Under the pieces are notes generated by a model. The model made no database searches. It was not told where the DNA came from and saw only the letters and a list, made by a program, of their open reading frames with translations. A stretch of DNA of 64,000 nucleotides. Source: Polyangia bacterium. GTDB lineage: Bacteria > Myxococcota_A > Polyangia > Fen-1088. The stretch is taken from assembly GCA_036268875.1 (NCBI GenBank), contig DATATI010000091.1, forward strand, positions 13,513-77,512, given 5' to 3'. How positions within the stretch are numbered: position 1 is the first letter of the stretch; every line of letters starts with the position of its first letter. Shown here piece after piece: positions 12,156 through 39,537 of this stretch. Made by a program: the position numbers and the translations under genes.

Positions 12156-12163
12156 CAGCGACC

Positions 12164-22659: not shown

Positions 22660-24294
22660 ATGGATCTGAAAACGATGCGGGACAAAGCTCCGGCTTCTGT
22701 TCGGGCGTGGCGACGGCGAACCATTTTGGCGGCGACGTTGATCGCCGCGGGCGTGGCGACGGCGACGGCGCCGGCCCCGGCCCGCGCGCAGGCGGCGCCC
22801 AACCAGGCCGTCGTCGATCGACTGGTGCAGATGAACCAGAAGGCGCTGGACGACTACGACACGCTGGAGTTTGACTCGGCCAAACGGAGGCTGCTGGAAG
22901 CGCTGGTGATCGGGAAGAAGGCGGGCCTGGACAATCATCCGGTGCTGGCCCGCACCTACGTGCACCTGGGCGCGGTGTATCTCACCGGATACAAGGATCG
23001 GCAGAAGAGCCTGCAGAGCTTTATTCGCGCGCTGGAGATCGATCCCAGCATCACCATTCAAAAGAGCATGCTGTCGAGCGAGCTGGCCGACGTCTTCGCC
23101 CAGGCCACCCGGCAAGCCAAGCCCCGGGCCGCCGCCGCGCCGCCCCCGCCGCCTCCGCCGAAGCCCGCGCCGGTTGAGACCCCGAAGGCGGTCGTCGCGC
23201 CGCCACCGCCGCGTCCAGCACCGGCGACCCAGGCCCACCGGGGAACGCTGCCCGTCGAGGGCGAGGTGCCGCCGCCCCCGCTGCCTGCCAAAGCGTCGGG
23301 GAAAAACCAGGACAGCGATTCAGAGGAGCCGGATCTCCCGGTGCACATCAACGCTCTCGATTGTCCGGTCAACGATGAGACGCCGCCGGAAAAAAACGTG
23401 GCGGTACGCTGCGCGGTGGCGCCCGAGCTGGGCGCCACCAGCGTGACCTTGCTTTACCGCGTACCCGGCTCCGAGGACTTCGTCGAGTCGCCGATGAAGA
23501 AGACGCCCAAGGGATGGTTCGTCGGCCGCATCCCCAAGAAGGCGGTCAGCGGCAAGGCGGTGCAGTTCTATTTCGAAGCGCGCGACCGCGCCGGCAAAGC
23601 CCTCGCCTCCAACGGGCGCGGTGACAGCCCGAACCTGATCTTGATTCGCGAACACGCCGACGGCGACAGCGCTGACGGTGACGACGAGGGCCGTCGCCCC
23701 GAAGTGGAAGAAAATCCTTTGGAGGATACGCGCGACGTCCCGTCGCAATTCGGCCGCCGCCGGTGGTGGCTCGGCCTGATGGCTGGCTCGGGCATCGGGT
23801 ATGCGGGCGGCGACGGTCCGGAAGCGCGCACAGAATTGAGGGGCGTGTTCTTGCCCGGCATCGCCTTCTCGTCGCTCGGTCACCTGGCGCCCGAGATAGG
23901 CCTGCAGCTTGGCGCGCACCTGGCGCTGTCGCTGCAGGGCCGCAATCAATACATCCCGCAAGCAAAGAAGTACGAACGCTACGCCGCCACCGGGGCGCAG
24001 TCGGTGTTGCTGCGTGTCCTGCTGATGACCGGTCAACACCGCGTGCGGGCTTACGGCGCCGCGATGGTGGGCGGCGGCGAAGGCTTTCGACTGGTGATCT
24101 ATCCTGACCCGCAGGATCGCAACTTCAAAGACACCGTGCGCGGCGGCCCCGGCCTGGCGGGGCTGGGCGCCGGCGTCACCGTCGACGTCACCTCCGCGTT
24201 CTCGCTGGTGCTGGAGCTCAACGGCCTGGTCGGGTTTCCGCATTTTTCCGCCGTCGCCGACGGCCACGCCGGCTTCCAGGTGAATTTCAACTGA
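22660..24294 (+). CDS. Secreted (RRR signal) protein with TPR-like N-domain, Pro-rich linker and C-terminal beta-strand-rich domain ending in F (outer-membrane-like)
   Basis: Signal peptide, alternating hydrophobic C-terminus ...AGFQVNFN. Confidence 0.55.
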   Translation: MDLKTMRDKAPASVRAWRRRTILAATLIAAGVATATAPAPARAQAAPNQAVVDRLVQMNQKALDDYDTLEFDSAKRRLLEALVIGKKAGLDNHPVLARTYVHLGAVYLTGYKDRQKSLQSFIRALEIDPSITIQKSMLSSELADVFAQATRQAKPRAAAAPPPPPPPKPAPVETPKAVVAPPPPRPAPATQAHRGTLPVEGEVPPPPLPAKASGKNQDSDSEEPDLPVHINALDCPVNDETPPEKNVAVRCAVAPELGATSVTLLYRVPGSEDFVESPMKKTPKGWFVGRIPKKAVSGKAVQFYFEARDRAGKALASNGRGDSPNLILIREHADGDSADGDDEGRRPEVEENPLEDTRDVPSQFGRRRWWLGLMAGSGIGYAGGDGPEARTELRGVFLPGIAFSSLGHLAPEIGLQLGAHLALSLQGRNQYIPQAKKYERYAATGAQSVLLRVLLMTGQHRVRAYGAAMVGGGEGFRLVIYPDPQDRNFKDTVRGGPGLAGLGAGVTVDVTSAFSLVLELNGLVGFPHFSAVADGHAGFQVNFN

Positions 24295-25546
24295 GCGCGG
24301 CCAGCGCGGCGGCGGCGCTGGCGGGACGGCGAGCGGGATCGGGCTCGGTCAACTGCGCGATCAGCGCGGCCAGGCGGCGACCGTCGAGGGTCAGCGTGGC
24401 CAGGGCCTCGGGGTTCAACGTGGCGGGCCGGTAGATGCCGGTGACCAGATCGGCTTGACCACGCAGCGGCACGCCGGTCAGCACCTGCCACAGGATGGCG
24501 CCGGCGGCGAACAGATCAGTCGCGGGCGAGGCGCCGGCGCCCTGAAATTGTTCGGGCGCCAGATAAAGCGGCGTGCCGGCCGGCGCTTCCTCGCGGCCGG
24601 CGCGCGGGGCGTTCTCCTCGCGGCCGGGGGCAAGCTGGGCGATGCCAAAGTCCGCCAGCACCACCTGTCCGGGCGCGCGCAAAAGTAGATTCGACGGCTT
24701 CAGATCGCCGTGAACCACGCCCTGGCCGTGCACGTAGACCAGCGCCCCCAGCAAGCTGCGCGCGGTGCTCGCGATCTCCGCCGCGTCGAGCGCCGGCTGG
24801 GCGCGCAGGCGGGCGCGCAGCGTGCCGCCGGCCAGGTATTCCATCGACAGGGTGCGCGTCGGTTCGTCGAGATCGTAGATGGCGATCACGCCGGGATGGC
24901 GCAGGGCCGCGGCCAGGCGCGCTTCGGCGAAGAAGCGCCGTCGCATTTCTGACCGCGCCGGCGCCGCCAGCTGCGGGTGCAGCACCTTCAGCGCCACTGA
25001 GATCCCCAACATCTCGTCACGCGCCAGATAGACCGCCGACGTCGCCCCCCGGCCAAGCTCGCGCAGCAGGCGATAGCGCAAAGTCTCGACACCCTCGGGC
25101 GAGATCAGCGTCGCGGCCTCGCCGCCGACGGGCAGGTCGGCTTCGGCTTGCGGGCGCAAGGCACGCAGGCGGGCGCGCGCCTGGGGATCGTCGACGTCGT
25201 CGGCCAGCACCCGCTCCCAGCGCACCGCCGCCCGGCCCAGCTGACCTTCCGCCTCGTCCAGCTCGGCCAGCGTGCGGTTGGCCTGGCGGGCCGGCTCGTC
25301 GGCGAAGGTGCCGGGGCGATCCAGCGCCGTCAGCTGCCGGCGCGCCGCCGCCGCGTCGCCGGTCTGAAACAAGAGGCGACCCAGGCGCAACCGATTGGGC
25401 GCGTCGTCGGGATGCCCATCGACGTGGGCCCGCAGCGCCGCCGCCGCCGCCCCCAGATCGCCATGGCGTTCCAGTCGATCGGCAGCCCGCAACGGGTCTT
25501 CCGGCGTGGCCGTTGATCCATCGCGCCGCGAAAAAGCCGAGGCCAT
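24287..25546 (-). CDS. Ser/Thr protein kinase with N-terminal TPR region
   Basis: GRGATSAVY..ALKVL..HGDLKPSNLL..DFGIAQ..PLYLAPEQ. Confidence 0.85.
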   Translation of the reverse strand: MASAFSRRDGSTATPEDPLRAADRLERHGDLGAAAAALRAHVDGHPDDAPNRLRLGRLLFQTGDAAAARRQLTALDRPGTFADEPARQANRTLAELDEAEGQLGRAAVRWERVLADDVDDPQARARLRALRPQAEADLPVGGEAATLISPEGVETLRYRLLRELGRGATSAVYLARDEMLGISVALKVLHPQLAAPARSEMRRRFFAEARLAAALRHPGVIAIYDLDEPTRTLSMEYLAGGTLRARLRAQPALDAAEIASTARSLLGALVYVHGQGVVHGDLKPSNLLLRAPGQVVLADFGIAQLAPGREENAPRAGREEAPAGTPLYLAPEQFQGAGASPATDLFAAGAILWQVLTGVPLRGQADLVTGIYRPATLNPEALATLTLDGRRLAALIAQLTEPDPARRPASAAAALAALS

Positions 25547-26793
25547 CAGATCACCTCGAAGCGCAACGTCGGCGCGGTTGTCGCGGCGCCGGCCGGCCGC
25601 ACCTCGATGACGTCGCCGTGCAACAGATCGCAGCCGGCGCCGATCAGTTGCCCATCGACGCGCACCGCGACCTCGGCCGCGCGTCCGAGGCGCGCCACGC
25701 CGCTCGCAAATCCGATCGACAGGCCGGCCGCTTCGGCGAGCAACCGATCAAGCGGCAGCGGCCCGTCGCCGACCACCGCCAGCAACGCCCGATCGAGACC
25801 GGCGCCGCCCGTCAGCACCGCCGCGCCGTCGGCGTCGACGCTGAAGCGCAACGTGCACGTCGCGCCCAGCGACAGCTCGCCGTCGCCGTGCAGGGCCAGG
25901 GCCGCCGATACCAGCGCGCCGCCCAGGCGCACACCCGAACGCGAGCCGGCGTCCTCGATGGTCAGCGCGCCATCGCGGCGGGCCAGCAAGGCGTGGCGGC
26001 GCGACACGCCCGGATCGCGCAGCGGGATCTCTGCCGCCGGATCGCGTCCCAGCAGCGCCGGCGTGGCGGCGAAACGGACGCTGCGTCCGTCGGGCAAGCG
26101 AAGGGTGACGCCGCGGCCGCGGCAAAGCCGACTGTCCAGCCGATGCCCGAGCTCCCGCGCGCTGGCCGCCTCGGCGGTTCCTTCGGAGATGGCGGCCGCG
26201 GCGCTGACAGCGGCCAGGCGTTCGCCCGCGCCCAGCAACGTCTCGAACCGGCGCATGGCATCGACCGCCGTGGTCCGCGCGTGCTGCCGTCGCTCGATGC
26301 GGGCCAAAGCTTCTTCCATCTGCTCTATGTCGCCCAGGGCGGCGAAGGCGTCGGCGGCGTGGGTGTCGTCGCCCAACTCCTCGAAAAGGCCGGCCGCGCG
26401 CCGGTGCTCGGCGGCGGCGAACAGCAGCGTGGCGGCCAGGCGGACCGCGCGCTTGTCGACCTCGCTGTCCAGCGGCCTGCGCGTGAAGGTCAGCAGCGCG
26501 TTGGCGGCGGCGCAGCGGGGCGCGCGCAGCTCGCGATCGGCCGCCGCCGCTTCGCGCTTGCCGCGCCGACGGGTGCGCGCGACATCGTGAAAGGCCTGGG
26601 CCGCCGCCGTCAGATCCGCCAGCCCCACGCGCGGATTGGTCTGCGGCGTACCGGCCATCTTGAAAAGGAAGGTGATGGCCTCCCAGTTCTGCTGGGTGGC
26701 CAATCGTTCGACGAATCCACCGACGTCGTGCGCCTCCGCCGCTTGCAGGATCTCGCTTAGCGAGATGGTGCGTTCATCGGTGGGTCCCGGCAT
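25546..26793 (-). CDS. FHA-domain protein
   Basis: LGRDPAAEIPLRDPGVSRRHALLARRDGALTIEDAGSRSGVRLGG FHA signature; stop overlaps kinase start. Confidence 0.75.
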   Translation of the reverse strand: MPGPTDERTISLSEILQAAEAHDVGGFVERLATQQNWEAITFLFKMAGTPQTNPRVGLADLTAAAQAFHDVARTRRRGKREAAAADRELRAPRCAAANALLTFTRRPLDSEVDKRAVRLAATLLFAAAEHRRAAGLFEELGDDTHAADAFAALGDIEQMEEALARIERRQHARTTAVDAMRRFETLLGAGERLAAVSAAAAISEGTAEAASARELGHRLDSRLCRGRGVTLRLPDGRSVRFAATPALLGRDPAAEIPLRDPGVSRRHALLARRDGALTIEDAGSRSGVRLGGALVSAALALHGDGELSLGATCTLRFSVDADGAAVLTGGAGLDRALLAVVGDGPLPLDRLLAEAAGLSIGFASGVARLGRAAEVAVRVDGQLIGAGCDLLHGDVIEVRPAGAATTAPTLRFEVI

Positions 26794-28351
26794 GGAGTAT
26801 CATTTCATTATGCTCCAGCGTGTCGCGCTCGGGCAGGTGCGCTTCAACCTGCCGGGCCTGTCCACCGACGGGCGGGGCGTGGCCACTGGCCGGCAGTGCG
26901 CGATCCGGTTCGGAGCCATCGATCGGCTGGTGGCGTTCTTTCGCATCCTTTCGGCGCAGCGCAATCTGGATGATCTGCAGCCCGGCCTGCGCCTTTTGAA
27001 CGCCCGCGGCGCGGCTGGCCCGCGCGAGATGATCGTCATCCTGCCGACCGGATCGACGCACCTGGCGGACGCGATCGCGTCGGCGGCGCGCACCGCCGGC
27101 GGCCAGTGTTTCACCGGCGATTTGAAACATTTCGTGCAGTACCGCGACGGGCGCGCGCCGCTGGGCTACGACGCCGCCGAGGTGGCCACCGACCCGAGCG
27201 AAATCATTCTTTACGCCGCCGAGCAGACGGTGGCCTACCAGATCGAAAGTGAGCTGCCGTTTCCCAAGCTGCTTTTGCGGCTGCCCTTGCAGCGCCAGCA
27301 CGGCGTCCCCGCGGGGCCGCCCAGCGGCGGCCTGCTTTATGTGGTGGTGCGCCGGGGCCTGGGTCCGACGGTGGCGCAGTATCTTTACCGCGCGCAGCGG
27401 CTGGCGCCGCCCGGCGCCGGCGACGGGCGGCCTTGGCTGCGGGCCGCCGCCGCCTTGTGTGACGAGAGCAGCGACGGCAGCGCGTTTCAGCCCGGCCGAT
27501 CGTTCTGGTTGTTTCGTCTGGAAGGCCTTCCGGCGCGGATGATGGGCCTGCTGTCGTCGACGCCGGGGCTGGAACCATACGTGCCGGCGACGGACAACGT
27601 GGCCGTGGCTCTTGGCCATCGCCATCCGATTCATCTGGAGGCCTGCAAGTCCAGCTTTGCCGGCGATCGATTTTTTCTCTTCGCCGCCGGCGGGCGCGGT
27701 GTCACCGTGCTGTCTGCCCTGCCCACGCTGACCGCGCTGGAAGATCTGGTGCGCGTCGGCGGCGCCCGCGCGCAAGCGCCCGAGGTGACAGCGGCGCGCC
27801 TGGGTCCTCGTCCCGAGGTGGCCGTGCCGCTGCGGCTGGAAGCGGTCTCCGACGTCGAACGGCGGGCGGTGGCCACCTTGATTCCGTGGCGGCAGGTGTC
27901 GTGGTTGCGGCGCCTTTGTTACGCGCTGCCGGCGCCGGCGCTGCGCTCGCACCGGGTGGCCTTGCTGGATCGGGGCGTGCTGGTCCTGTCGTCGGGCGTG
28001 CTGGACGGAATTCCCTTCGGCATGTTGCTGGACAGCGCGGCGCCGGACGTGCTGGTGCCACTGGGGGCGCGGCTGCGACCGGCGGTTTCGCCGGCCCTGC
28101 TGGCGGCGAAGGTCGGCGCCAAGGACGGCGCGGTCGTCGTCTTCCCCGCGCTGGACGCCTTGCCCTTTCGCGTCCCGCCCGAAGTCATCGAGCCGCTGGA
28201 GCGACAGATCCTGGGCAGCGCCGAAGCCATCGCCGTCGACGCCGCCGAGCCGCGCCGCCACCCCACGCAAACAGTGGAGCCGGCGCCGGTGGAGATCGAA
28301 AACGACTGGCTGGGTCCCATGCCGCTGTGGGGACTGGGGCCGACGCGGTGA
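26792..28351 (+). CDS. Hypothetical protein A (519 aa, no recognisable motif); first gene of 4-gene module
   Basis: High GC3, AT-rich translation start; antisense ORF 26774..28270 is R/Q/H-rich junk. Confidence 0.6.
   Translation: MEYHFIMLQRVALGQVRFNLPGLSTDGRGVATGRQCAIRFGAIDRLVAFFRILSAQRNLDDLQPGLRLLNARGAAGPREMIVILPTGSTHLADAIASAARTAGGQCFTGDLKHFVQYRDGRAPLGYDAAEVATDPSEIILYAAEQTVAYQIESELPFPKLLLRLPLQRQHGVPAGPPSGGLLYVVVRRGLGPTVAQYLYRAQRLAPPGAGDGRPWLRAAAALCDESSDGSAFQPGRSFWLFRLEGLPARMMGLLSSTPGLEPYVPATDNVAVALGHRHPIHLEACKSSFAGDRFFLFAAGGRGVTVLSALPTLTALEDLVRVGGARAQAPEVTAARLGPRPEVAVPLRLEAVSDVERRAVATLIPWRQVSWLRRLCYALPAPALRSHRVALLDRGVLVLSSGVLDGIPFGMLLDSAAPDVLVPLGARLRPAVSPALLAAKVGAKDGAVVVFPALDALPFRVPPEVIEPLERQILGSAEAIAVDAAEPRRHPTQTVEPAPVEIENDWLGPMPLWGLGPTR
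26795..26812. promoter_or_regulatory. AT-rich island (gagtatcatttcattatg) at the junction of divergent genes; TATCAT -10-like box 6 nt before ATG 26810
   Basis: Only AT-rich stretch in ~2 kb of >70 % GC sequence. Confidence 0.3.
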
Positions 28352-29679
28352 CCGTCGACGCCGCTCACCTTCTGGCGGCTGGTGGCGGCGGCGAACTGGT
28401 CGACGCGGCCACCGACTTACCCGGCGGCGACCAAGGCGGCTCCGGCGCGGCCACCGACGACGCCGGCGCCGATCGCGCGCTGCTTCGATTCGTCACTCGG
28501 TTTTTGCTGCCGCTGGTGCGGGGAGGCGCGCTGCACGTCGGCCGACCGCTGGGACCGCGCCTGGTCGATCGGCTGTCGGCGCGCGTGGCCGTGGGCGGGC
28601 TGGCGTCGTCGGCCTGGTCGACGAAGGCGTTGGCGCCGGCGCCGGTGTCGTCCTCAGCATCGTCGGGTGTTCGTGGCGACGACGTGGTCGGCGCGCTGGC
28701 GGCGGGCCGTCACGCCGTGGCCTTGCGGTTGTTGTCGCGCGCGCGGGTGCCGGCGCTGGACCCGGCGACGGTGCGGCTGGGCGCGGCGCTGCACAACCTG
28801 CTGGCGCTGACCCACCCGGCGATCGAAGGCCGTGGCGCCGAGGGAAGGCAGGGCCGCATCGCCGTCGCCGCGCTGGAACTGGCCGCGCTGGGCCCGCCGC
28901 GCACCGTGGCCGAAGCGGTCGATCGTCATTCGCTGCTGGCGCGCCTGCCCGAGATCGGGCGCTCGGATCGTCTGGTTCACTATTGGCTGGGGCGCCAGGC
29001 GTTCGTTGGGCGGATGCCGCCGCGGCGGGTGACGGCGATGCCGCGTCTGCGGCAGGTGCGGGTCGAAACCTTCCGGCGTGGCTGGCTGCGCGAGATCGGG
29101 ATGCCGGTGTGCGCACGGCCGGCGTTCCTGGCCCTCAGCATCGCCAACCCGCTGGGCGAGACCGAAGATCTCTTTCGGCTGGAGCCGCCCGTCGGCTGGA
29201 GCCGCATCTTGCCGGCGCTGCGTTTTCCTGAACTGTCACGGGTAGTCGCCGGACGCGTGGTCGAGCAAGGGGTGCTGCGCGCGGGCGACGTGCTGGCGGA
29301 CGCGCTGTTTCGGTTTGCTTCGGGGCACGATCCGCCGGGCGGCGTCAGCCCCAGCGGGGCGGCCATCGCGTTCGCCATCCGTTTTTTATCGCATTGCCTG
29401 TGGCTGGATCTGCTGTTCGGCTCGCCGGCGGGCGCCGCCAGCGTCACGGCTGATCGTCCGCCGGGCCTAGATCTGGCGGTGATGCTGGTGGCGGCGCAGC
29501 GGATCTCGTCGGCGCTGGTTTGGCCGCCCGACGTGGCGCCCACCAGCGATCTCGGCCGGCGCTTCATCGATCGCATGGCGGCCATGGCGTCGCAGGTGCG
29601 CGAACGGCGCTCGCCGCGTTTTGACACCGCGGTGGGCGTGGCCAGCTTGGCCGCGCCGTCGCTGCGGTCGCCGCCGTGA
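28348..29679 (+). CDS. Hypothetical protein B (444 aa, GTG start overlapping stop of A: GTGA)
   Basis: Frame-1 ORF; only start compatible with upstream gene is GTG 28348. Confidence 0.5.
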   Translation: MTVDAAHLLAAGGGGELVDAATDLPGGDQGGSGAATDDAGADRALLRFVTRFLLPLVRGGALHVGRPLGPRLVDRLSARVAVGGLASSAWSTKALAPAPVSSSASSGVRGDDVVGALAAGRHAVALRLLSRARVPALDPATVRLGAALHNLLALTHPAIEGRGAEGRQGRIAVAALELAALGPPRTVAEAVDRHSLLARLPEIGRSDRLVHYWLGRQAFVGRMPPRRVTAMPRLRQVRVETFRRGWLREIGMPVCARPAFLALSIANPLGETEDLFRLEPPVGWSRILPALRFPELSRVVAGRVVEQGVLRAGDVLADALFRFASGHDPPGGVSPSGAAIAFAIRFLSHCLWLDLLFGSPAGAASVTADRPPGLDLAVMLVAAQRISSALVWPPDVAPTSDLGRRFIDRMAAMASQVRERRSPRFDTAVGVASLAAPSLRSPP

Positions 29680-29748: not shown

Positions 29749-30966
29749 ATGTCCGTCAGCGAAACAGCCCCCGGACGCATCCAATCGGTGCTGGATGCTG
29801 ACGCCTTGCGCGTGGGGCACAAGCTGCGCGAGGTGGGGCGCGAGCTGGACCAGCGTTACCTGGACAAGTCGGAGCTGGTGCGCCTGCTGCTGGTCACGCT
29901 GGTGGCCGGCGAGCACATGCTGATCGTCGGCCCGCCCGGCACCGCCAAATCGGCGCTGGTTCGGCACCTGGCGCGCCTCATCGATGCCCGCTATTTCGAA
30001 TATCTGCTGACCCGGTTCTCCGAGCCGAACGAGATCTTCGGCCCGGTGGACATCAAGGCTTTCCGCGAGGGCACCTACGTGCGGCGGGTGGAGGCGATGC
30101 TGCCGGAGGCGGAGATCGTTTTTCTCGACGAGATCTTCAAGTCGAACTCGGCCATCTTGAATGCGCTGCTGAGCATCCTGAACGAACGACGTTTCTTCAC
30201 CGGCAGCGTCAGCCTGAAGGTGCCGCTGTGCTCGCTGTTCGGGGCGACCAACGAAGTCCCGAACGACGACGCGCTGGGCGCGGTGTTCGATCGATTCTTG
30301 GTCCGGGCGCTGTCGGACAATCTGGACAGCTTTCATTTTCACGGGCTGGTCGAGCGCGGCATCCGCGGCGAGATCGCCGAGATCAGCGGCGCCGACGAGA
30401 TCCGCCGCCCGCTGCTGGCGCTGGCCGACATCCGCAAGCTGCAGACCCGTCTTGGTCAGTATCTGCAGTTCCCCGAAGAATGGATGGCCCGCTATAAAGG
30501 ATTCATCTTTCAGATCCGTTCGGAGGGCGTGACCATCAGCGATCGGCGGGTGGTCAAGCTGCTGAAGCTGTTCGCCGCCAGCGCCATCATCGACGGCCGC
30601 GCCACCGTCAACGACGGCGATTTTTTCGTTCTCAAGCACGTGTGGAACAGCGTCGATCAGGTGCCGATCCTGGCCGACGTCGTCGGGCCGGCGCTGGACA
30701 AGCACCACCGCGAGCACCCGGACGAAAGGCGCAGCGGCGCCACCGCAGCCGACCTTGACGGCATCCTGCGCGAGCTCGGGGTGATACGCGGCCTCTTGCT
30801 GGGCGGCGAGCCGCTGTCCGACGTGCAGCTTTTCTCGCAGCTGCGCAACCTGCAGGAGATCCGTTCGGCGCTGCAGGCGCTGGGCACTGACACCGCCAAG
30901 CAGATGGCCGGCGAGGTGGACAAGCTTTTGGAAGGCGTCTTCGAATCGAACCAATGGACCGGATGA
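29749..30966 (+). CDS. MoxR-family AAA+ ATPase, RavA-like (no LARA domain)
   Basis: Walker A GPPGTAKS; YFEYLLTRFSEPNEIFGPVDI and EAEIVFLDEIFKSNSAILNALLSILNERRF align with E. coli RavA. Confidence 0.85.
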   Translation: MSVSETAPGRIQSVLDADALRVGHKLREVGRELDQRYLDKSELVRLLLVTLVAGEHMLIVGPPGTAKSALVRHLARLIDARYFEYLLTRFSEPNEIFGPVDIKAFREGTYVRRVEAMLPEAEIVFLDEIFKSNSAILNALLSILNERRFFTGSVSLKVPLCSLFGATNEVPNDDALGAVFDRFLVRALSDNLDSFHFHGLVERGIRGEIAEISGADEIRRPLLALADIRKLQTRLGQYLQFPEEWMARYKGFIFQIRSEGVTISDRRVVKLLKLFAASAIIDGRATVNDGDFFVLKHVWNSVDQVPILADVVGPALDKHHREHPDERRSGATAADLDGILRELGVIRGLLLGGEPLSDVQLFSQLRNLQEIRSALQALGTDTAKQMAGEVDKLLEGVFESNQWTG

Positions 30967-32249
30967 AACGAAACCGCCGCGGACCCGATCGCGACGACAC
31001 CTTTGCCCCGTCACCCAAGCCCGTTCGCCAGCGCCGGGCGTTTTCCACGCTGGGCGGGCCGATCGAGCTCGGCGGCGCCAGCGCCGAGGCACGCCTGCTG
31101 GGAAGATTGCTGGACGTCGATCCCGGTTTGGCGCGCGCGCTGACCCACGGCTTTCACAGCTATGCCGGGCGCATGCACCCGTCGATCGCCCGCGGCGCCG
31201 TCGACGCTTTCAGCGCGGTGGGCGACACGGTGGTCGATCCGTTCTGCGGCAGCGGCACCGTGCTGGTCGAGGCGATGGGTCTCGGCCGGCGCGCGCTGGG
31301 CGTCGACGCCAGCCCCCTCGGCGTGGCCATCGCCGGCGTGCGCACCACCACCCTGGGTGAGGACGGCCGGGCGAAGCTGCAAGAGGAGGCGGTGCGCATC
31401 GCCGAGTCGTCGGGCGAGCAAGCGCGCAAACGCCAGCGGCCCGCCATGCCGGCCTGGTCGCAAAACGAGCTGTCGCGTTTTCACCCGCACGTTCTGCTGG
31501 AGCTTTTGGGCCTGCGCGCGCTGGTGATGGAGACCGACGCCGACGATGACGTGGGCCGCGCCTTGCGCCTGTGCCTGTCGTCGATCCTGGTCAAGTTCAT
31601 GAAGGCCGGCCCCGAGGCTCCGCGCGACGGCGAGACCAAGCGCATCGCCCGCGGGGTGCCGTCGCGCATGTTCGCCGATCGCGCGGCCGAGCTGGCGCAG
31701 GGCCTGGCCGCGCTGGAGCGGCGCACGCCGCCAGGGACGCCGGTGGCGCAGGCGCGCCTCGGGGACGCGCGCGATCTGTCCGCGATCAAACGCGGCTCCG
31801 TCAAGCTGGTGGTGTCGTCGCCGCCTTACGCCGGCACCTACGATTACGCCGCCCAGCACGACGTGCGGTTCACCTGGCTGGATCTGCCGCGCAAGCTGTT
31901 CCGAAAGACTCAGCTGGGCGCGCGCCACGCCAGCCTGGGCGCCGATCCCGACGCCTGGCGCGCCGGCCAGAAACAGTGGATCGCCGAGGTGGCGCGCGTG
32001 CTGGCGCCGGGCGGTCACGCCTTGTTGGTGGTGGGCGACGGCGTGGTGGGCGTGGAGGCCGAAGACGCGCCCGACGCCGTGGCCAGCGCCGCCGCGCCGG
32101 TGGGCCTCGAGCCGCTGGCGCGCGCCTCGCAGACGCGGCCGGTGATCGACAACCGTCTGCAGGCGATCTTCGCCAGCCGCCCGCGCCGCGAGCACTTGTT
32201 GCTGCTGCGTCGGTCGGGCGGCCGCGACGGCGTATCGTCGTCGCCCTGA
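30963..32249 (+). CDS. SAM-dependent amino-methyltransferase (UPF0020 / N6-adenine-N4-cytosine-like); ATGA overlap with ATPase gene (alt start 30954)
   Basis: Motif I VVDPFCGSGTVLVEA, motif IV VVSSPPYAGTYDY. Confidence 0.8.
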   Translation: MKRNRRGPDRDDTFAPSPKPVRQRRAFSTLGGPIELGGASAEARLLGRLLDVDPGLARALTHGFHSYAGRMHPSIARGAVDAFSAVGDTVVDPFCGSGTVLVEAMGLGRRALGVDASPLGVAIAGVRTTTLGEDGRAKLQEEAVRIAESSGEQARKRQRPAMPAWSQNELSRFHPHVLLELLGLRALVMETDADDDVGRALRLCLSSILVKFMKAGPEAPRDGETKRIARGVPSRMFADRAAELAQGLAALERRTPPGTPVAQARLGDARDLSAIKRGSVKLVVSSPPYAGTYDYAAQHDVRFTWLDLPRKLFRKTQLGARHASLGADPDAWRAGQKQWIAEVARVLAPGGHALLVVGDGVVGVEAEDAPDAVASAAAPVGLEPLARASQTRPVIDNRLQAIFASRPRREHLLLLRRSGGRDGVSSSP

Positions 32250-32292: not shown

Positions 32293-32523
32293 ATGGCCAA
32301 ATCACCATGTCCGCTTTCGAAGACGCAATTTCTCGAAAAGGCCGAGTCGGTGAAGATCACCATCGGCAACACGGAGATCGTCGCTGACAAGCGCGAGTTC
32401 TCCACCGGGTCCTTCGGTTGGTACTACAACGGCAAGACCACCGTCACCGTCGACGGCAAACCGCTGTCGGTGCAGGTTGGATTGAACCTGACCGTGGTGG
32501 GCAGCAAGGAAGCAGAAAGGTAG
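32293..32523 (+). CDS. Small (76 aa) Lys-rich hypothetical protein, predicted all-beta, lower GC
   Basis: Clean ORF with decent codon bias in an otherwise intergenic gap. Confidence 0.45.
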   Translation: MAKSPCPLSKTQFLEKAESVKITIGNTEIVADKREFSTGSFGWYYNGKTTVTVDGKPLSVQVGLNLTVVGSKEAER

Positions 32524-32669: not shown

Positions 32670-34862
32670 ATGTCTTCACTTGGACTCTGCGTTTCGTCGA
32701 AGGCTGCCCGCGCGTGGTTGGCGGTTTTGGTTTCGTCTTCATTGATTGGGATCGGCTGCGGCGGATCGTCGGGCAATCCCACCGACGGCGCGGTCGACCG
32801 GGTGAAAGACGGCGGCGGCAGCGGCGGCGCTGATGCACGCGGCAGCGGCGGCAGCGGCGGTGGAACCGGCGGCGGGTTCGGCAGCGGCGGCGCGTCCGGG
32901 ACCGGCGGCGGATTCGGCAGCGGCGGCGCGTCCGGGACCGGCGGCGCCAGCGTCGACGCGCCCGTCGACCACGCCGATGCCACCCTCGACATGCCGGCGA
33001 TGGATGCGGTGAAGCCGGTCGACGTTTCGGTCGATCACGGGCCGGATATGGCCATGGACACCACCGTTCCCAAGGACGTGGCGGCCGATGTGCCGCGCGA
33101 CGTTCCGGTGGACATGCCGCCTCGTTGCGCCGCCGGCGCGGCCTGCACGCTGCGCGGGGCGCCGGCCATCTGCAAGGCCAACGCCTGCGCTGCTTGCGTC
33201 GACACCACCGACGACGGCGCCTGCGTGACGGCGTACGGCGCGGCCCACGTCTGCGTGCGCGCCCGTTGCATTTCTGGCGATTGCCACACCTCGGCCACCT
33301 GCACGGCGGGCGAGATCTGCGGCGCCCGCACGGCCAACACCTGCGGCGCGTGCACGTCGGACGCGCAGTGCCGCAACGACACGCGCTATGGTTCGGCGTT
33401 CGTTTGCTTCACCACGCCGGGACAGGCCAACACCGGCAAGTGCGTGGCGGCGATGTGCACCGGCGCCGGCGTCGCCTGCGGCGCCAACAGCAGCGACGTC
33501 TGTTGCAACGCCAGCTGCGTGACCGGCAACTGCTGCACCGACGACGACTGCCGCAACAACCCCAAGTTCGGAGCCGGCTTTGCTTGCGGCACCAACCACA
33601 CCTGCTCGCGCTGCGACGGCGTCACCGGCAATCACTACTTCGTTGATCCCGCCGGCGGCAACGATTCCACCGCCACGGGCAGCGGACAGAGCGCCAATGC
33701 CGCCGTCCCCAGTTGCAGCTTCAAGACCATCACCCGCGCCCTGCAGATCATCGGCAACAACGCGCCCGTCGGCACCACCGTCACGGTGGTGGGAAAGACT
33801 GGCGCGACCACCAGCTTGCAGACGGCGGCGGGCCCGGCTGGCTCGCCGGCGCCGGAAGATCTGCCGATCACCGTCGGGACCAACGTGAAGATCACCACCT
33901 CGGGTGGCGCGATCTCGCTGGTGCTGCCGGCGGGAGCGGACGGATTCAAGCTGGCCGGCAACGGCGCCTCGCTGACACCGACGGCGACGGCGGCGCTGAT
34001 CATCGACGGATCGACCAGCACGTCAGGCTCGGGGATCGTGGTCGCGCCGGGCGCGGCGGGCACGGTCTCGATCAGCGACCTCACGGTGCAGAACACCGGC
34101 GATGACGGCATCACCATCAGCGAAGGCACCCTGAACATCGGCGCCGGCGTGGTGGTCAAGGGCGTCGGCTTGCCGTCGGAAACCGGGCGGCGCAGCGGCC
34201 TCAACGTCGCCGGCGGCACGGTGAAGATCGCCGTGCCGAACGGTCAGACGCAGACGTCGTTCAACGCGAACACGGAGAACGGCATCCGCGTCACCGTTTT
34301 GGGCACGCTGACCATCAACGGCGTCGCCACCGGCGAGGGCACGGTGGTGGCCAAGTCGAACACGCTGGCCAACATCTTCATCAATCACACCCCGGGGGCG
34401 GCGCCCGCGGTCAGCAGCATCGACGGCGTCATCGCCACCGGCAGCACCAACGGCGACGGCGGCTTCCAGATCCTGGGCGGGTCACGCGTGAAGCTCAGAA
34501 ACAGCATGGTGCTGGGCAACGCCAAGGCGGGCGTGGCCATCGGCGCGGCGGACGCCACGGCGGCGGGCAGCGCCTTGGCGGGGATCGATCTCGGCACGGC
34601 GCAGGATCCGGGGCGGAACGTGTTGCAGGCGGCGTTGGGGTCGAACTCGAACACCGGCGCAGGGCTGTGTGTTCAGCTTGACGCTGATGCCGGCAACCAG
34701 ACCCTAGCCGCCGCCGGCAACACCTTCGCCGGTCCGCGCGACTGCGCCGCCGTCGCGCCCGGGGCCATCACCAAAGGCATGGACTGCGGCGCCCGCGTCG
34801 ATGAGGCCGTGGTGCCGGCCACCGGAACCACCGTCACTGTCACAATCAGCAACTGCCAGTAA
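32670..34862 (+). CDS. Lipoprotein with Gly-rich linker, Cys-rich domain and right-handed parallel beta-helix (pectate-lyase-like) domain
   Basis: Lipobox LIGIGC; AGGAG SD; beta-helix rungs ..GDDGITISEGTLNIGAGVVV.. Confidence 0.7.
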   Translation: MSSLGLCVSSKAARAWLAVLVSSSLIGIGCGGSSGNPTDGAVDRVKDGGGSGGADARGSGGSGGGTGGGFGSGGASGTGGGFGSGGASGTGGASVDAPVDHADATLDMPAMDAVKPVDVSVDHGPDMAMDTTVPKDVAADVPRDVPVDMPPRCAAGAACTLRGAPAICKANACAACVDTTDDGACVTAYGAAHVCVRARCISGDCHTSATCTAGEICGARTANTCGACTSDAQCRNDTRYGSAFVCFTTPGQANTGKCVAAMCTGAGVACGANSSDVCCNASCVTGNCCTDDDCRNNPKFGAGFACGTNHTCSRCDGVTGNHYFVDPAGGNDSTATGSGQSANAAVPSCSFKTITRALQIIGNNAPVGTTVTVVGKTGATTSLQTAAGPAGSPAPEDLPITVGTNVKITTSGGAISLVLPAGADGFKLAGNGASLTPTATAALIIDGSTSTSGSGIVVAPGAAGTVSISDLTVQNTGDDGITISEGTLNIGAGVVVKGVGLPSETGRRSGLNVAGGTVKIAVPNGQTQTSFNANTENGIRVTVLGTLTINGVATGEGTVVAKSNTLANIFINHTPGAAPAVSSIDGVIATGSTNGDGGFQILGGSRVKLRNSMVLGNAKAGVAIGAADATAAGSALAGIDLGTAQDPGRNVLQAALGSNSNTGAGLCVQLDADAGNQTLAAAGNTFAGPRDCAAVAPGAITKGMDCGARVDEAVVPATGTTVTVTISNCQ
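32865..32948 (+). repeat. Tandem 36-bp duplication (x2.3) encoding TGGGFGSGGASG in Gly-rich linker
   Basis: Units 32865-32900 and 32901-32936 differ at one base. Confidence 0.7.
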
Positions 34863-34928: not shown

Positions 34929-36344
34929 GTGACGGTCACGGACGCCCGCGGCGACGACGGCGAGACGGAGCTCGGGCGCCAGCTCGCCACGCTGGCGCTG
35001 TCATGTGTGCGGCCCTCGGGATCGATGGAGGCCATCGCGGCGGTGTCGTGGTGGAACATGCTGGCGCGCCTGGGACTGCAGCTGCCGCTGGTGGTGGTGC
35101 ACGACCTCGGCTTGTTGCTGTCGCGCGGCCGGGAAGGGCGAGGGCGCGAGGTGGTGCGCCCCCCGGGCGCCGCGGCGGTGGTGGGGCGGTACCACGCGCT
35201 GCTGACGACGGTGGCCGCGTCGGAGATCATCGACGAACTCGGGGCGGCGCCGCTGCACGACGACGCGGTGGCGGTGATCCTGGCGCGGGTCCTGGGCGAC
35301 GTGTACCTGCGCTGGCCGGCGCGGCCGCGCCTGGGGCCGCGCAGCGACATCGATCAATTGCCGTCGGCGTCGCCGCTTTACGACCGCGACCGGGCGGCAC
35401 CCGGCGGCGAACGGGATGCCGGGTGGGCACTGCCGTTTCTGCAGCGGCTGTGCGATCTGGAACGGCCGGTGCTGGCCCGCTTTGATCAGATTGATGCGGC
35501 GGCGCTGCGCCTTCTGGGGTTGTTCTCCGTCGACGCCGGGCTGGCCGACCTGGCCGATCTCTACCAGTTGGTGGCTACGCCGGGCACCGCCGACGTGGTG
35601 GATTTTTCACTGCAACTGCTGCCGTCCCTGCTGGAGACCAAGCGGCGGCCGGCGGCGCAGCGGTTCTCCATCGACGGTTACGCGTCGGTCGAACGGCGCG
35701 GCAGCCTGGACGCGCTTTTGCCCGGAGAGCTGGCCCACGACGACGACAGCTTCGCCCTGAAGGCGCTGTCCGACGATCTGCTGTTTTACGGCCACGAGCG
35801 CCAGCAAGAGACCGGACGCAAGCTGCACTATGTGCTGGTCGACGCCAGCGCATCGATGCGCGGGACGCGGCAGGTCTTCGCCCGCGGGCTGGCCCTGGCC
35901 CTGTGCAAGAAAGTTTCGCTGATGGGCGGCGAGGTGTGGGTGCGCTTCTTCGACAGCCGCCTTTATGATCGACTGGACATCGGCGGCGCCGGCCGCCGCG
36001 ATCTGCCGCGGTTTCTGTGCTTTCGTTCCGAACGCGGGCGCAATTACACCCGGGTGTTCTCCGACCTGGCGGTCGAGGTGACGCGGTTGCGGCGCGAGCG
36101 CGGGCGCGACATCGCGCTGACCTTCATCACCCACGCGGAATGCCACATCCCGCTGCCCATCGTCGAAGCGCTGGCGCGCGAGGCGTATCTCTACGGAATC
36201 TTCGTGCAGCCGTCGAAGCCGCTGGAGCTGGAATACCTGCCCAAGCTGCACCGCCATCAGGTGGTCACCGCCGATTCGCTGTCGCGTTCGGCGGACAAGC
36301 GGCGCCGGGCCCTGGACATCGTCGAGGACGCGGCGATCGGCTGA
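34929..36344 (+). CDS. VWA-domain protein, ViaA-like architecture (N-domain + C-terminal VWA with MIDAS VLVDASASM)
   Basis: DxSxS MIDAS at ~aa 305; GTG start; stop overlaps next gene (TGATG). Confidence 0.75.
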   Translation: MTVTDARGDDGETELGRQLATLALSCVRPSGSMEAIAAVSWWNMLARLGLQLPLVVVHDLGLLLSRGREGRGREVVRPPGAAAVVGRYHALLTTVAASEIIDELGAAPLHDDAVAVILARVLGDVYLRWPARPRLGPRSDIDQLPSASPLYDRDRAAPGGERDAGWALPFLQRLCDLERPVLARFDQIDAAALRLLGLFSVDAGLADLADLYQLVATPGTADVVDFSLQLLPSLLETKRRPAAQRFSIDGYASVERRGSLDALLPGELAHDDDSFALKALSDDLLFYGHERQQETGRKLHYVLVDASASMRGTRQVFARGLALALCKKVSLMGGEVWVRFFDSRLYDRLDIGGAGRRDLPRFLCFRSERGRNYTRVFSDLAVEVTRLRRERGRDIALTFITHAECHIPLPIVEALAREAYLYGIFVQPSKPLELEYLPKLHRHQVVTADSLSRSADKRRRALDIVEDAAIG

Positions 36345-38158
36345 TGGCCACGCGCGACGAGATCGACACCAAGGATCGCGCCGACCGAGCGCTGCGCGGC
36401 GGGCGGGCGCGCGAGGCGCTGGGCCTTTACAGCACACTGCTCGGGCGCGTGCAGGTCTTCGAGGCGGGGCTTTACGACAGCTGGCTGGAGGGCGCGCTGG
36501 CGGCGTACCAGGCGCTGCGCCGCGGGCGCGAGGCGGGTTATGTGCTGCTGGCCTTGCGCCGGTTCGCCGAGGCCCAGCGGCATTTTCCCGTCGACGTCTA
36601 CCCGCACGAATGGGCGCTGTGCGCGTCCAAGCTGGGGCGCCACGGCGAGGCGGCGCGCGTGCTCAGCGACGCCGGCCACCCGGCGCTGGCAGCGGTCGAG
36701 CTGGAATCGTCGGGCGCACACACGGCAGCCCGCCTCGAGTGGGAGCGCGTGCTGCGCGATCCGCGCCTGACCGGCCAGCCGTATGAAACCGCGCTGGCGC
36801 ACTTCAACCTGGGAGAGGCCCTGCTGCGCACGTACGAACGTGCCGGCGCCGAGCGCGCGCTGACCATCACCCAGCGCCTGCTGGAAGAGCTGGCCGACGA
36901 GTTCGAGACCCGTGGCGAGCGCGAGCGCGCCTTCGACTGCTACAGCATCCTTTTGCGCCTGGGTCGGGACACCGGATCCTTCGAGAACGTCGCCGAGGGT
37001 TACTTGAACGGCATCCGCATCCTGGCCAGCGACGATCAAAAATTCTATGTCCTGCAGTACTACGAAGACTTTCTGGCCTTCGCGGTCGAACAGAAGGAAT
37101 GGTACGCCGCCGCCACCCTGGCCCGCGAGGCGGCGGATTTCAGCCTGAAAGCCGGGCTGGTCTACGATCGGCATTACCTGCAGCGCGCCGCCACGCTGTG
37201 GGGGGAGACCGCGCGCCACAACGAAGCCAGCGGCGGGCCACCCGAACTGTCGGAGAATGCCTTGCACGCCGGCATCGACGCCGGCACCTCGGCCGGCGAT
37301 CTGTCTTTGTGCGGACGCCTGTACACGCAGCTGGCGGCGTTGCCGCTGACGCCGAAGAAACGCGCCCGCTACCGCCTGCTGGCCCAGCGGTACGGCAGCG
37401 TCACGGTCGAAGCGCCGCCGGCGCCGGCGCTGCCGGAATATCTGCGGCGGTCCGGCGCCTATCAGGACGTCTGGCGGCAGGATCTGATCGAATGGGAGCT
37501 GGACGGCGATCCCAAGTCGGTGCTGGCACGCCTGGTGGTCGATCGCACCGACCACGCGCGCTTCTCGCGTCTGGCATTGCGCGCGCTGTTGCTGTGCGCG
37601 GCCCCCGGCGATGACCAGGCGGCCGACGATCCCGTCGCCATCAGCGAGGTGGCGATGGCCTTGGGCCGCATCCAGGTCTACGAAGTGCTGCGCCCGCTGG
37701 AGCGGCTTTACTTGCACCCCTCGTCGCAGGTGCGCGCCGCCGTGATGGGCGGCGTGGGCCAGGTGTATTGCAAGCGCAGCTTCGTGCTGGTGCGCAAGGG
37801 CCTTGGCGATCCCGCGCCGCTGGTGCAGGACGAAGCCCTGCGCGCCTTGCGCGGCCTGCGTTTCCGCGATGGCTTCGATCCGCTGGTGCGCATCTTCCGC
37901 GAATCCACCGACGAGCGCGTGCGCGTGGCGGCGCTGGAGACCATCGCTGACATCGGTTCGTTGGAAGCCGGCCTTTTCTTGCTGGACGTCATGCGCCATG
38001 AGACCGGCGTCCTGCGCAACACCGCCGAGGCCCGCCTGACCGTCTTCTCGGGCGACGACATCACCGCCACAGTCCGTCAGTACCTGGACCGCGAGACCGG
38101 CGAGCGCCGCGAGAGCCTGCAAGCGATCTTGAAGTCGCTGACCACGTCCAGCGTGTGA
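36344..38158 (+). CDS. TPR/HEAT-repeat protein (PBS-lyase-like HEAT repeats at C-terminus)
   Basis: Start ATG 36344 (MATRDEID) overlapping upstream stop; longer track ORF from 36017 is out-of-context. Confidence 0.6.
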   Translation: MATRDEIDTKDRADRALRGGRAREALGLYSTLLGRVQVFEAGLYDSWLEGALAAYQALRRGREAGYVLLALRRFAEAQRHFPVDVYPHEWALCASKLGRHGEAARVLSDAGHPALAAVELESSGAHTAARLEWERVLRDPRLTGQPYETALAHFNLGEALLRTYERAGAERALTITQRLLEELADEFETRGERERAFDCYSILLRLGRDTGSFENVAEGYLNGIRILASDDQKFYVLQYYEDFLAFAVEQKEWYAAATLAREAADFSLKAGLVYDRHYLQRAATLWGETARHNEASGGPPELSENALHAGIDAGTSAGDLSLCGRLYTQLAALPLTPKKRARYRLLAQRYGSVTVEAPPAPALPEYLRRSGAYQDVWRQDLIEWELDGDPKSVLARLVVDRTDHARFSRLALRALLLCAAPGDDQAADDPVAISEVAMALGRIQVYEVLRPLERLYLHPSSQVRAAVMGGVGQVYCKRSFVLVRKGLGDPAPLVQDEALRALRGLRFRDGFDPLVRIFRESTDERVRVAALETIADIGSLEAGLFLLDVMRHETGVLRNTAEARLTVFSGDDITATVRQYLDRETGERRESLQAILKSLTTSSV

Positions 38159-38169
38159 ACGTTGATCGC

Positions 38170-38481
38170 CTAACGCCGCCGCCGGTAAATCGCCCACGCC
38201 GCCAGCGTTGCGATCATCACGACTGGCACCACCAGCCGCGGCCCTTGGTGAGCGGCGACGTTGCCGCTGACCCACAAAACGCAGAAGAGCGACGCCATCC
38301 CGACCACCAGCCAGCGCAGGTATCGTTGCGATGAAGCCAGTTTTTGCTGTTGTTCCTGGCGCACGCGGCCGAGCTCGGCGCGCACCCAGTCGACGTCGAT
38401 CGGTTCGCCGCGCTGCTGGCGGGCCACCTGTTCGTCCAGGTAGGCCTGGCGGTCGCGGCGATCGTGGTTGCCGGGTGGCAT
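38170..38481 (-). CDS. Small 2-TM membrane protein
   Basis: Two C-terminal hydrophobic helices; downstream of PLD-like gene same strand. Confidence 0.45.
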   Translation of the reverse strand: MPPGNHDRRDRQAYLDEQVARQQRGEPIDVDWVRAELGRVRQEQQQKLASSQRYLRWLVVGMASLFCVLWVSGNVAAHQGPRLVVPVVMIATLAAWAIYRRRR

Positions 38482-38502
38482 CGGCCCATCATAGCGCCAT
38501 CG

Positions 38503-39537
38503 TCAGGGCGGCGCGCCGGCGGCGGCGTCGGCGGCGATCGTCGCGCTGACGCGCGCGGCGGCGGTCGAATCGTCGACGATGATTCCCACCTCGCGGTTGT
38601 GGTCCATCGACGCGGCGGTGAGGTTGACCGAACCGACGTACAGCCGCCGGTGGTCCGCGACGATGGCCTTGGCGTGTACGGCCGGCGCACCAACGGTCCG
38701 CACGCGCACGCCGGCCGCGACCAGCCGGGCCAGCGCCGATTTGGTGGCCGACGATTGATCGGCGGCCGGTGCCACCACCGTGAGCGCCACGCCGGCCGCC
38801 GTCGCGTTGGCCAGCGCAGCGACCACCCCGGCATCGGAGAGTTCTTCCATTTCCACGTCGAGCTGGCTCTGCGCGCCGTCGATCAAGGCCAGCAGTGACG
38901 CCCGCGCGTTCTCCGGCGCGCTCAGCAGGCGCCCGCCGGGCGCCGCCGTCGCTGTGTCGTTCCGATCGGCGGCGATCATTGCCTGCGCCGCGGCGACGTC
39001 GGCGGGTGCTTGGTCCACGACGGCGAACTCCCGGTTGGTGGTCAGTCCGGCGTGGGTGAGGTTGCAGGTCATCAGCACCGCTTCCTGGCCGTCGACGACC
39101 AGCAGCTTGGTGTGGGTCAAGGCGAAGCGCGCGCTCGACCAAACGACGTCGACACCGGCCGCTTGCAAGCGATCGTGCGCGCCGCGGTTGGCGGTCTCGG
39201 CGCCGAAGGGATGAGGCTCTATCACCACCGTGACGGCGCGGCCGGCGGTGGCGGCGTCGACCAGCGCGGCGATCACCTGATCGTCGGTCAGCAGATAGAT
39301 CTCCAGCGCCACTGTGCGGGTGGCGGCCCGAATCAGCGTCGCGATCGGCGGTGGGCCGTCGTCGGGTTGCACCCGCAGCTCGACGGGGAGACCAGACCCA
39401 TTGCCGGCGGCGCCTGAAGTGTCGAATGACGGCGGCGCGCACGACGTTCCCGCGACGGCGAACGCCAACCAGCCGATCGCACCCAAGGCCGGTACAAGCG
39501 CAGCCAACCGCGACGGTGGACGCAGGAAGTGAATCAC
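38503..39537 (-). CDS. Phospholipase D-family protein with two HKD motifs (cardiolipin-synthase-like), secreted/lipoprotein
   Basis: LTHTKLLVVD...N and VHAKAIVAD...N; GTG 39537 preferred over 39681 (upstream part low GC3). Confidence 0.7.
   Translation of the reverse strand: MIHFLRPPSRLAALVPALGAIGWLAFAVAGTSCAPPSFDTSGAAGNGSGLPVELRVQPDDGPPPIATLIRAATRTVALEIYLLTDDQVIAALVDAATAGRAVTVVIEPHPFGAETANRGAHDRLQAAGVDVVWSSARFALTHTKLLVVDGQEAVLMTCNLTHAGLTTNREFAVVDQAPADVAAAQAMIAADRNDTATAAPGGRLLSAPENARASLLALIDGAQSQLDVEMEELSDAGVVAALANATAAGVALTVVAPAADQSSATKSALARLVAAGVRVRTVGAPAVHAKAIVADHRRLYVGSVNLTAASMDHNREVGIIVDDSTAAARVSATIAADAAAGAPP

Follow-up and report, generated by a model that had tools for sequence, protein, structure and literature searches.

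Introduction

In the NorQ-NorD, CbbQ-CbbO and RavA-ViaA pairs, a MoxR ATPase and an adaptor with a von Willebrand factor A (vWA) domain are encoded beside the protein on which they act. In this work, we analyzed a methyltransferase (MTase) gene that overlaps a MoxR-type AAA+ ATPase gene in a 64,000-nucleotide stretch of a Polyangia bacterium genome (contig DATATI010000091.1; "the window" hereafter denotes this whole stretch), whose nearest relatives are metagenome-assembled genomes of uncultured Polyangia (Myxococcota). By analogy with the three pairs above, this locus also combines a MoxR ATPase, a vWA protein and an adjacent candidate client, which here would be a DNA methylase. The parts are of known kinds, namely an alpha-order amino-methylase and a MoxR-vWA system of the ternary type, and the conserved MoxR-methylase pair is a new variation on them.

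The operon is related to the MoxR-vWA ternary systems of the beta-propeller and FtsH types, for which Kaur, Burroughs, Iyer and Aravind (2020; PMC7159879) described a GxxxTAKS P-loop. MoxR-vWA systems of this type were called enigmatic by these authors and lack a recognizable effector, the ternary systems are predicted to be conflict systems, and the text mentions no methyltransferase in them (PMC7159879). The literature that we searched held neither a paper tying MoxR-vWA systems to a methyltransferase nor a myxobacterial methylome study for the MTase family described here. The canonical gene order of these bp systems is bpX4-bpMoxR-bpX2-[bpX0-vWA-bpX1]-[bpX3-TPR]. The window system resembles them in its bpMoxR ATPase with the GxxxTAKS motif, a homologous divergent vWA protein, an accessory protein with weak bpX2/fvmX7-like signals and a TPR-bearing protein encoded after the vWA gene, but it differs in having no beta-propeller, an intact metal-ion-dependent adhesion site (MIDAS) and another gene order, and it has a methylase and kinase/FHA neighbors in addition. 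Neither bpX0, bpX1, bpX3 nor bpX4 was detected in the window system, and the hhalign comparison of its protein B with bpX4 was not significant. Because the beta-propeller is lacking, these comparisons place the system as a propeller-less relative of this family rather than as a full member.

As to the enzyme itself, the orphan methylases CcrM (a beta-order PF01555 enzyme) and Dam (PF02086) are likewise nuclease-less, lineage-wide, conserved and chromosomal, and copies of the MTase in sister lineages lie near ruvC or parAB. Neither CcrM nor Dam is known to be linked to an AAA+ chaperone.

Results

The methyltransferase and its family

A preliminary description of this stretch had proposed an MTase gene at positions 30963-32249 that starts in an ATGA overlap with an ATPase gene. 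Both the reading frame and the overlap were confirmed: the junction reads CAATGGACCGGATGAAACG, in which the ATG of the MTase (30963) shares bases with the TGA that ends MoxR (30964-30966). In a window with a GC content of 68%, open reading frames (ORFs) can arise by chance, but this one is a genuine gene, since it scores above the cut-offs of two Pfam profiles, has a native GC content at third codon positions (GC3) and numerous homologs, and conserves motifs I and IV invariantly. The Pfam scores were 55.2 bits for N6_N4_Mtase (PF01555; cut-off 26.7) and 35 bits for UPF0020 (PF01170; cut-off 22.3), the latter match covering residues 72-115 alone. The GC3 of 0.89 is similar to that of the neighboring genes, and 1454 homologs were found at E<=1e-5, the best 120 of them at 65-97% identity. 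Motif I (DPFCGSGT, residues 92-99) occurs in all 33 family members that were aligned, and the S-P-P-Y of motif IV (residues 286-289) is invariant both in the Polyangia family and in homologs from restriction-modification (R-M) systems; the two are separated by 194 residues, fewer than the approximately 220 first estimated. An N-terminal RQRRAFST and a C-terminal REHLLLLR segment are conserved in the family alignments and specific to the Polyangia subfamily. The enzyme is thus predicted to be catalytically intact.

The profile PF01555 covers both halves of the protein, as two stretches in swapped order, and in a phmmer alignment with the beta-class chain 2zie, residues 78-127 of the query corresponded to residues 224-273 of the chain and residues 266-295 to residues 23-53. 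The swapped stretches and this alignment therefore indicate that the MTase is circularly permuted relative to the beta-class enzymes, with the alpha order that had been suspected from its motifs: motifs X-I-II-III are followed by an all-helical insert (residues ~132-254), by motif IV and by motifs V-VIII. The AlphaFold2 (AF2) model, with a predicted local distance difference test (pLDDT) value of 86.9, is that of a Rossmann methyltransferase with the all-helical insert placed between strand 3 and motif IV.

The preliminary description had left open whether the enzyme is an alpha-class DNA MTase or a UPF0020 RNA MTase. Our results favor the DNA methylases because of (i) the two PF01555 halves, (ii) the colinearity of the PADLOC Type II MTase models with the protein over residues 64-328, (iii) distant colinear homologs encoded directly upstream of RE_TdeIII or RE_Bpu10I endonuclease genes, and (iv) the best Foldseek match among viral models, a Pandoravirus protein aligned at full length (438 columns, TM score 0.60/0.53, E 1.4e-14) that is annotated as a cytosine-N4-specific DNA MTase, other DNA methylases ranking next. 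Other distant homologs lie in a resolvase/ParA/SIR2 island, and those of rhizobial plasmids carry the annotation of DNA MTases; the island around one of these also encodes another methylase, a PLD protein and a UvrD helicase. The alpha-order Type II MTases paired with TdeIII or Bpu10I and the giant-virus enzymes annotated as N4-cytosine-specific share with the window enzyme the motif X-I-III region, the helical insert and (S/T)SPPY in colinear order. They differ from it in that the window enzyme has no endonuclease partner, carries the two additional segments mentioned above, and evolves slowly and vertically within one bacterial class, tied to a MoxR gene.

Similarity to the UPF0020 enzymes Trm11, Trm14 and RlmL, which form N2-methylguanosine (m2G), extends to the S-adenosylmethionine-binding segment and an NPPY-type pocket. 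As the preliminary description had noted, a THUMP domain is lacking; neither this nor any other RNA-binding domain was found in the MTase by Pfam or NCBIfam. The NCBIfam RNA-MTase equivalogs scored far under their cut-offs (TIGR01177, 34 vs 316; Trm14, 19 vs 280; RlmK/L, 16 vs 466), and no orthology to rRNA methylases of the RlmL/RsmD type emerged. Although archaeal Trm11 and Trm14 headed the Foldseek matches in the PDB, we judged this rank as non-decisive, the TM scores of 0.33/0.43 being low. Taken together, these comparisons suggest that the MTase is derived from DNA methylases and that DNA is its likely substrate. The probable product is N4-methylcytosine (m4C), and N6-methyladenine is less likely: the motif [VI][IF]TSPPY of sister lineages and R-M homologs matches TSPP[FY], the PROSITE signature of N4-methylases, while the lineage of the window has [VI][VL]SSPPY.

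The MoxR-methyltransferase pair

Gene order compared across some 30 species representatives of GTDB defined the operon, and the MoxR/MTase overlap is retained in nearly all of the GTDB loci. A second set of loci (related loci are numbered here with the prefix L) was sampled from metagenomes by similarity to the MoxR alignment, as that of protein B was too divergent to serve as a seed; it comprises one MoxR clade with 56-69% identity to L093. The MTase gene stands next to MoxR in 66 of the 67 informative metagenome loci, on the same strand in 64 and inverted in 2, and the remaining locus resembles L097 in having a vWA gene next to MoxR. Twelve loci that lack a vWA gene within 3.5 kb keep the pair, as do 5-11 loci with no A, or neither A nor B, upstream. 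Of all adjacencies in the locus, that of MoxR and MTase is therefore the most stable, being kept in nearly every locus and also where vWA/HEAT or A/B genes are not nearby. The two inverted MTase genes (L129 6170-7378 and L134 1559-2800) were located by tblastn only.

The coupling to the AAA+ gene that had been proposed is thus borne out, and it extends across deep lineages. In L093, a locus with a GC content of 60% and 61%, 50% and 36% identity to the MoxR, MTase and A proteins of the window, respectively, the order is A-B-MoxR-MTase followed by PilZ and parBA genes, and neither a vWA nor a HEAT gene is in the vicinity. The MoxR/MTase junction is homologous in both (WTG*/MDRM in the window and WTV*/VDRL in L093, with a 13-nt overlap in each), which points to one ancient capture of the MTase gene. 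No methylase was found in the canonical bp systems or in the other MoxR-vWA pairs examined, and other MoxR relatives have a VWA gene directly next to them. Comparison of the loci thus indicates that the MTase was captured once, into a pre-existing MoxR-vWA operon.

The divergence of all operon components co-varies (pairwise distances, rho 0.8-0.96), and the p-distance of the MTase (0.24) is among the lowest, with values of 0.15 for MoxR and 0.33 for both A and B. These co-varying distances and the slow evolution of the MTase indicate vertical inheritance under purifying selection, in contrast to typical R-M or defense islands; a horizontal origin of the locus was rejected given the native GC3 and the co-varying distances.

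Among the homologs of other lineages, those of the Labilithrix/Polyangiaceae group are 38% identical to the window MTase and 61-72% identical among themselves. In two loci of the Labilithrix type (L081 9246-10004 and L083 9381-10004), the MTase start overlaps the stop codon of a CxxC-rich ORF of 207-252 aa, which belongs to the conserved yebC-ruvC-lolA block and is unrelated to any window protein. The MTase gene is followed by convergent parB-parA genes in L093 (9759-12520), L175 (10695-13140) and L027 (11255-12972), with PilZ in between in the L093 type. This adjacency, which places the MTase near the chromosome partition locus there, is confined to the L093 and L027 lineages and does not occur in the lineage of the window.

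Absence of a nuclease partner

The preliminary description had reported no cognate endonuclease adjacent to the MTase gene, and restriction-endonuclease families were indeed not found in any neighboring protein by Pfam, NCBIfam or PADLOC; none was found in about 100 related loci either. PglZ, helicase and specificity-subunit families and a McrC-like partner were not detected in the neighborhood either. PADLOC returned generic MTase_II matches on the window, together with weak matches to mad2 (1.5e-10, in the motif I region) and mad8 (3.5e-4), whereas the MADS operon spans about 22 kb and has 8 genes, among them those of a kinase and a specificity subunit. Membership in MADS, BREX or DISARM was rejected, as the PADLOC matches are generic only and the signature partners (PglZ/BrxC; DrmA/DrmB helicase-DUF1998) were not found. 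The likeness to ATP-dependent modification-dependent systems that had been suggested found no support, given the missing nuclease or McrC-like partner, the slow vertical evolution and the generic PADLOC matches. Altogether, the comparisons indicate that the locus is not an R-M system and that the MTase is not an rRNA methylase.

Organization of the operon

The features of the locus are listed in Table 1. The operon has the order A-B-MoxR-MTase-[slot]-vWA-TPR/HEAT, with the kinase and FHA genes divergent upstream. The ATPase had been described as RavA-like rather than McrB-like, and its assignment to the MoxR group stands, with 246 bits (2.3e-73) to the Pfam bpMoxR profile PF20030; its Walker A motif is GPPGTAKS, a GxxxTAKS variant, and its Walker B motif is FLDE. 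Orthology to RavA itself was excluded by a score of 177.5 bits against the NCBIfam equivalog cut-off of 681. The MoxR-vWA operon to which the ATPase belongs, with the vWA gene 2.7 kb downstream, had been overlooked.

Table 1 Features of the MoxR-MTase locus in the window.
Feature	Position	Strand	Length (aa)	Remarks
Ser/Thr kinase	24287-25546	-		Divergent from the operon; Pfam
FHA-domain protein	25546-26793	-		Divergent from the operon; Pfam
Protein A	26810..28351	+	~513	Start MLQRVALGQ according to the ortholog alignment, not the ORF start 26636
Protein B	28348..29679	+	~443	Starts with GTG, in overlap with the A stop codon (GTGA)
bpMoxR-type AAA+ ATPase	29749..30966	+	405	PF20030, AAA_5, AAA_lid_8; stop codon overlaps the MTase start
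Methyltransferase (MTase)	30963..32249	+	428	Stop codon 32247-32249; alternative in-frame ATG 30954
Small ORF	32293..32523	+	76	Variable slot 3' of the MTase gene; window and its two closest relatives only
Secreted Cys/Gly-rich protein	32670..34862	+	730	Variable slot
Divergent vWA component (X)	34929..36344	+	471	Helical N-terminal region, C-terminal Rossmannoid vWA domain
TPR/HEAT-repeat protein	36344..38158	+	604	HEAT_2 2.2e-12; start overlaps the vWA stop codon (TGATG)
Membrane protein and two-PLD-domain lipoprotein	38170-39681	-	103 and 392	PLD gene 38503-39681

In the vWA protein, strand 1 is followed by an intact MIDAS (DASAS), and hhalign related this protein to the bpX0/bpX1 vWA protein of a canonical bp system from Hymenobacter (probability 95.8%, E 7e-9), whereas nothing significant was obtained with an ordinary VWA lipoprotein. 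The Foldseek matches of its AF2 model are almost exclusively vWA domains, including that of NorD from NorQD, and weak ivWA matches were also obtained, although the window protein itself has no Pfam match. A beta-propeller was found neither by Pfam nor in the AF2 secondary structure, the vWA domain reaching to the end of the chain (residue 471). The TPR/HEAT protein, whose overlap with the vWA gene is kept in nearly all loci, is the positional analog of the "third component"; hhalign with canonical bpX3/TPR proteins gave weak similarity and nothing significant.

The C-terminal half of protein A may be bpX2-like: 11 of 13 orthologs match PF19918 (bpX2) weakly, with a best value of 1.3e-4, distant orthologs match fvmX7 or BpX2_N in the Pfam annotation, and protein A gave a weak hhalign match (E 0.011). 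Protein B, the constant companion of A and MoxR in the contexts compared, has 411 cluster representatives in a library of 1.84 billion proteins and no match in Pfam, NCBIfam, PADLOC or the PDB. Profile searches of the PDB with A, B and the vWA protein gave no match.

The kinase and FHA genes are conserved neighbors of the operon, also in the methylase-less L097. In L084 (2135-4663), they were called as a single FHA-TPR-kinase gene of 842 aa; the MoxR and methylase calls of that contig are frameshifted, and the fusion may be a sequencing artifact. The vWA-like and TPR/HEAT genes also occur as a lone overlapping pair beside gltX, radical-SAM and GNAT genes in L085 (10001-13221), with MoxR, methylase, A and B absent within 10 kb.

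The slot 3' of the MTase gene holds nothing, a conserved ORF with four transmembrane segments or, in the window, the 76-aa ORF and the gene of the secreted 730-aa protein. The four-transmembrane protein (167 aa, 59-95% identity), absent from the window, is encoded in L010 (11313-11813) and 11 further loci (L012, L013, L016, L017, L020, L021, L024, L025 and L028-L030). The 76-aa ORF has a GC content of 57%, against ~70% in its neighbors, and is 100% and 97% identical in L001 and L002, respectively; it is absent from all other loci, and comparisons with Pfam, NCBIfam, PADLOC and phage sequences gave no match. The 730-aa protein is encoded between the MTase and vWA genes solely in the window and L001. 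In most relatives, its homolog follows the PLD lipoprotein gene further downstream and has the opposite orientation, which implies that a local rearrangement brought the gene into the variable slot. Both the 76-aa ORF and the 730-aa protein are probably outside the core system. The genes of the membrane protein and the PLD lipoprotein accompany the operon across the whole lineage of the window and are absent from L093 and L097; the PLD protein was rejected as a nuclease partner, being an exported lipoprotein and missing from these two loci. Elsewhere in the window, tRNA-Ser(TGA), tRNA-Ser(GCT) and tRNA-Arg(ACG) genes form a cluster (10704-12156, + strand). A consensus scan for promoters and terminators was uninformative in this GC-rich genome.

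Discussion

The reading that we tentatively prefer, giving it somewhat less than an even chance, is that a nuclease-less, probably m4C-forming DNA methylase entered a MoxR-vWA operon with kinase and FHA neighbors by a single capture and now probably serves MoxR as its client or output. According to this reading, an ancestral operon A-B-bpMoxR-vWA-TPR/HEAT, flanked by the kinase and FHA genes, would have acquired the methylase gene downstream of MoxR, in the lineage of the window between the MoxR and vWA genes, and the methylase would since have shared a transcript with MoxR, its translation being coupled to that of MoxR. The enzyme would mark chromosomal DNA, binding S-adenosylmethionine at DPFCGSGT, accommodating the flipped base in the SPPY pocket and relying on the helical insert for its specificity. 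The MoxR machine, together with the vWA adaptor where this is present, may control the methylase as its client or output, by physical or regulatory action; at a minimum, the pairing may set the methylase dosage via the shared transcript. We consider the chances of a functional coupling beyond co-expression to be about even. That the pair constitutes a functional unit, a module of DNA methylation gated by an AAA+ chaperone, is possible but rather doubtful; in such a module, a MoxR ring with a vWA/TPR-HEAT adaptor and kinase/FHA input would be responsible for the loading, activation or recycling of an m4C methylase dedicated to it.

The methylase might, on the other hand, be a solitary DNA methylase that acts autonomously throughout the lineage, in a housekeeping or epigenetic function as for CcrM or Dam; it would be held in the MoxR operon by its overlapping frames, and MoxR-vWA would neither act nor depend on it. 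Homologs standing alone in housekeeping neighborhoods of sister lineages, an operon in L097 that does without the methylase, the slot adjoining the MTase gene that admits unrelated genes, and the vertical inheritance of the whole block would all fit such a passenger. Nevertheless, we find it unlikely, given that the MoxR-MTase pair outlasts the loss or relocation of the vWA/HEAT and A/B genes, and even an inversion of the MTase gene, so that its persistence exceeds that of genuine partners of the system. Action on RNA or protein, that is, on guanine-N2 in tRNA or rRNA in the manner of Trm11, Trm14 or RlmL, or on a glutamine or lysine residue of a MoxR-complex protein, appears improbable to us. 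The rank of Trm11 and Trm14 among the solved structures, the PF01170 score above threshold and TIGR01177 as the top NCBIfam match agree with it, as do the high conservation of the enzyme, its housekeeping contexts in sister lineages and the fact that proteins are the normal targets of MoxR systems; however, the missing THUMP domain, the single segment matched by PF01170, the scores far under the RNA-MTase cut-offs, a TM score for Trm11 well below that of the m4C-annotated DNA methylase and the presence of the helical insert in restriction-endonuclease-linked methylases speak against it.

A methylation-based defense system, in which the methylase would mark self DNA and A, B or another linked protein would be a cryptic nuclease or effector driven by MoxR, similar to BREX, DISARM, MADS or a Type II R-M system with an unrecognized endonuclease, is very improbable in our opinion. 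The joint presence of a methylase, an ATPase and the uncharacterized proteins A and B, the nearby PLD-family gene and the weak mad2 and mad8 matches could be seen in this light, and MoxR-vWA ternary systems have been predicted to be conflict systems (Kaur et al., PMC7159879). Against this, nuclease, PglZ, helicase and specificity-subunit families were not detected, the PLD protein bears a signal of lipoprotein type and does not occur in L093 or L097, and MADS has its own composition of 8 genes over about 22 kb. Besides, the locus is single-copy, vertical, slowly evolving and not patchy, with native GC3, and the methylase is dispensable to the system, as seen in L097, just as the system is dispensable to the methylase in sister lineages.

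Several observations weigh against the reading that we prefer, that of a captured methylase acting as a client or output of MoxR. The metagenome sample was drawn by MoxR similarity and is phylogenetically clustered, so that its loci are not independent of phylogeny. A MoxR system exists without a methylase in L097 and L177; L097 (GC content 57%; 55%, 44% and 31% identity to the MoxR, vWA and A proteins of the window) consists of kinase, FHA and A-B-MoxR-vWA-HEAT genes, with no methylase within 21 kb. Conversely, the Labilithrix/Polyangiaceae MTase homologs occur without MoxR, in the order yebC-ruvC-lolA-x-MTase-fdx (ferredoxin), and the L027 MTase (59% identical) lies beside parB-parA, also without MoxR. 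Overlapping frames are mechanically hard to part, and the persistence of the pair may partly be inertia; the unrelated insertions accepted by the slot 3' of the MTase gene indicate that the operon tolerates passengers. As regards the substrate, the top solved-structure matches of the MTase are tRNA m2G enzymes, the motif of the window enzyme itself is VSSPPY and not TSPPY, and the choice between N4 and N6 draws on database annotation and a signature motif.

Within one clade, from uncultured soil myxobacteria, a conserved enzyme is thus translationally coupled to MoxR, exactly at the MoxR-to-vWA junction of a system type that had been considered effector-less. Even if this coupling were not functional, the locus would encode a class-wide, nuclease-less and probably m4C-forming methylase of the Polyangia that was previously uncharacterized. 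If it is functional, it would represent a new control of DNA methylation through an AAA+ remodeler, and the methylation motif would provide a testable biochemical read-out for the MoxR-vWA family, with the methylase-less L097 as a natural comparison. Were the pair a chaperone-gated functional unit, the methylase would be the first enzymatic output identified for MoxR-vWA systems of the beta-propeller/FtsH type, and signaling in multicellular myxobacteria would be tied to their epigenetic state.

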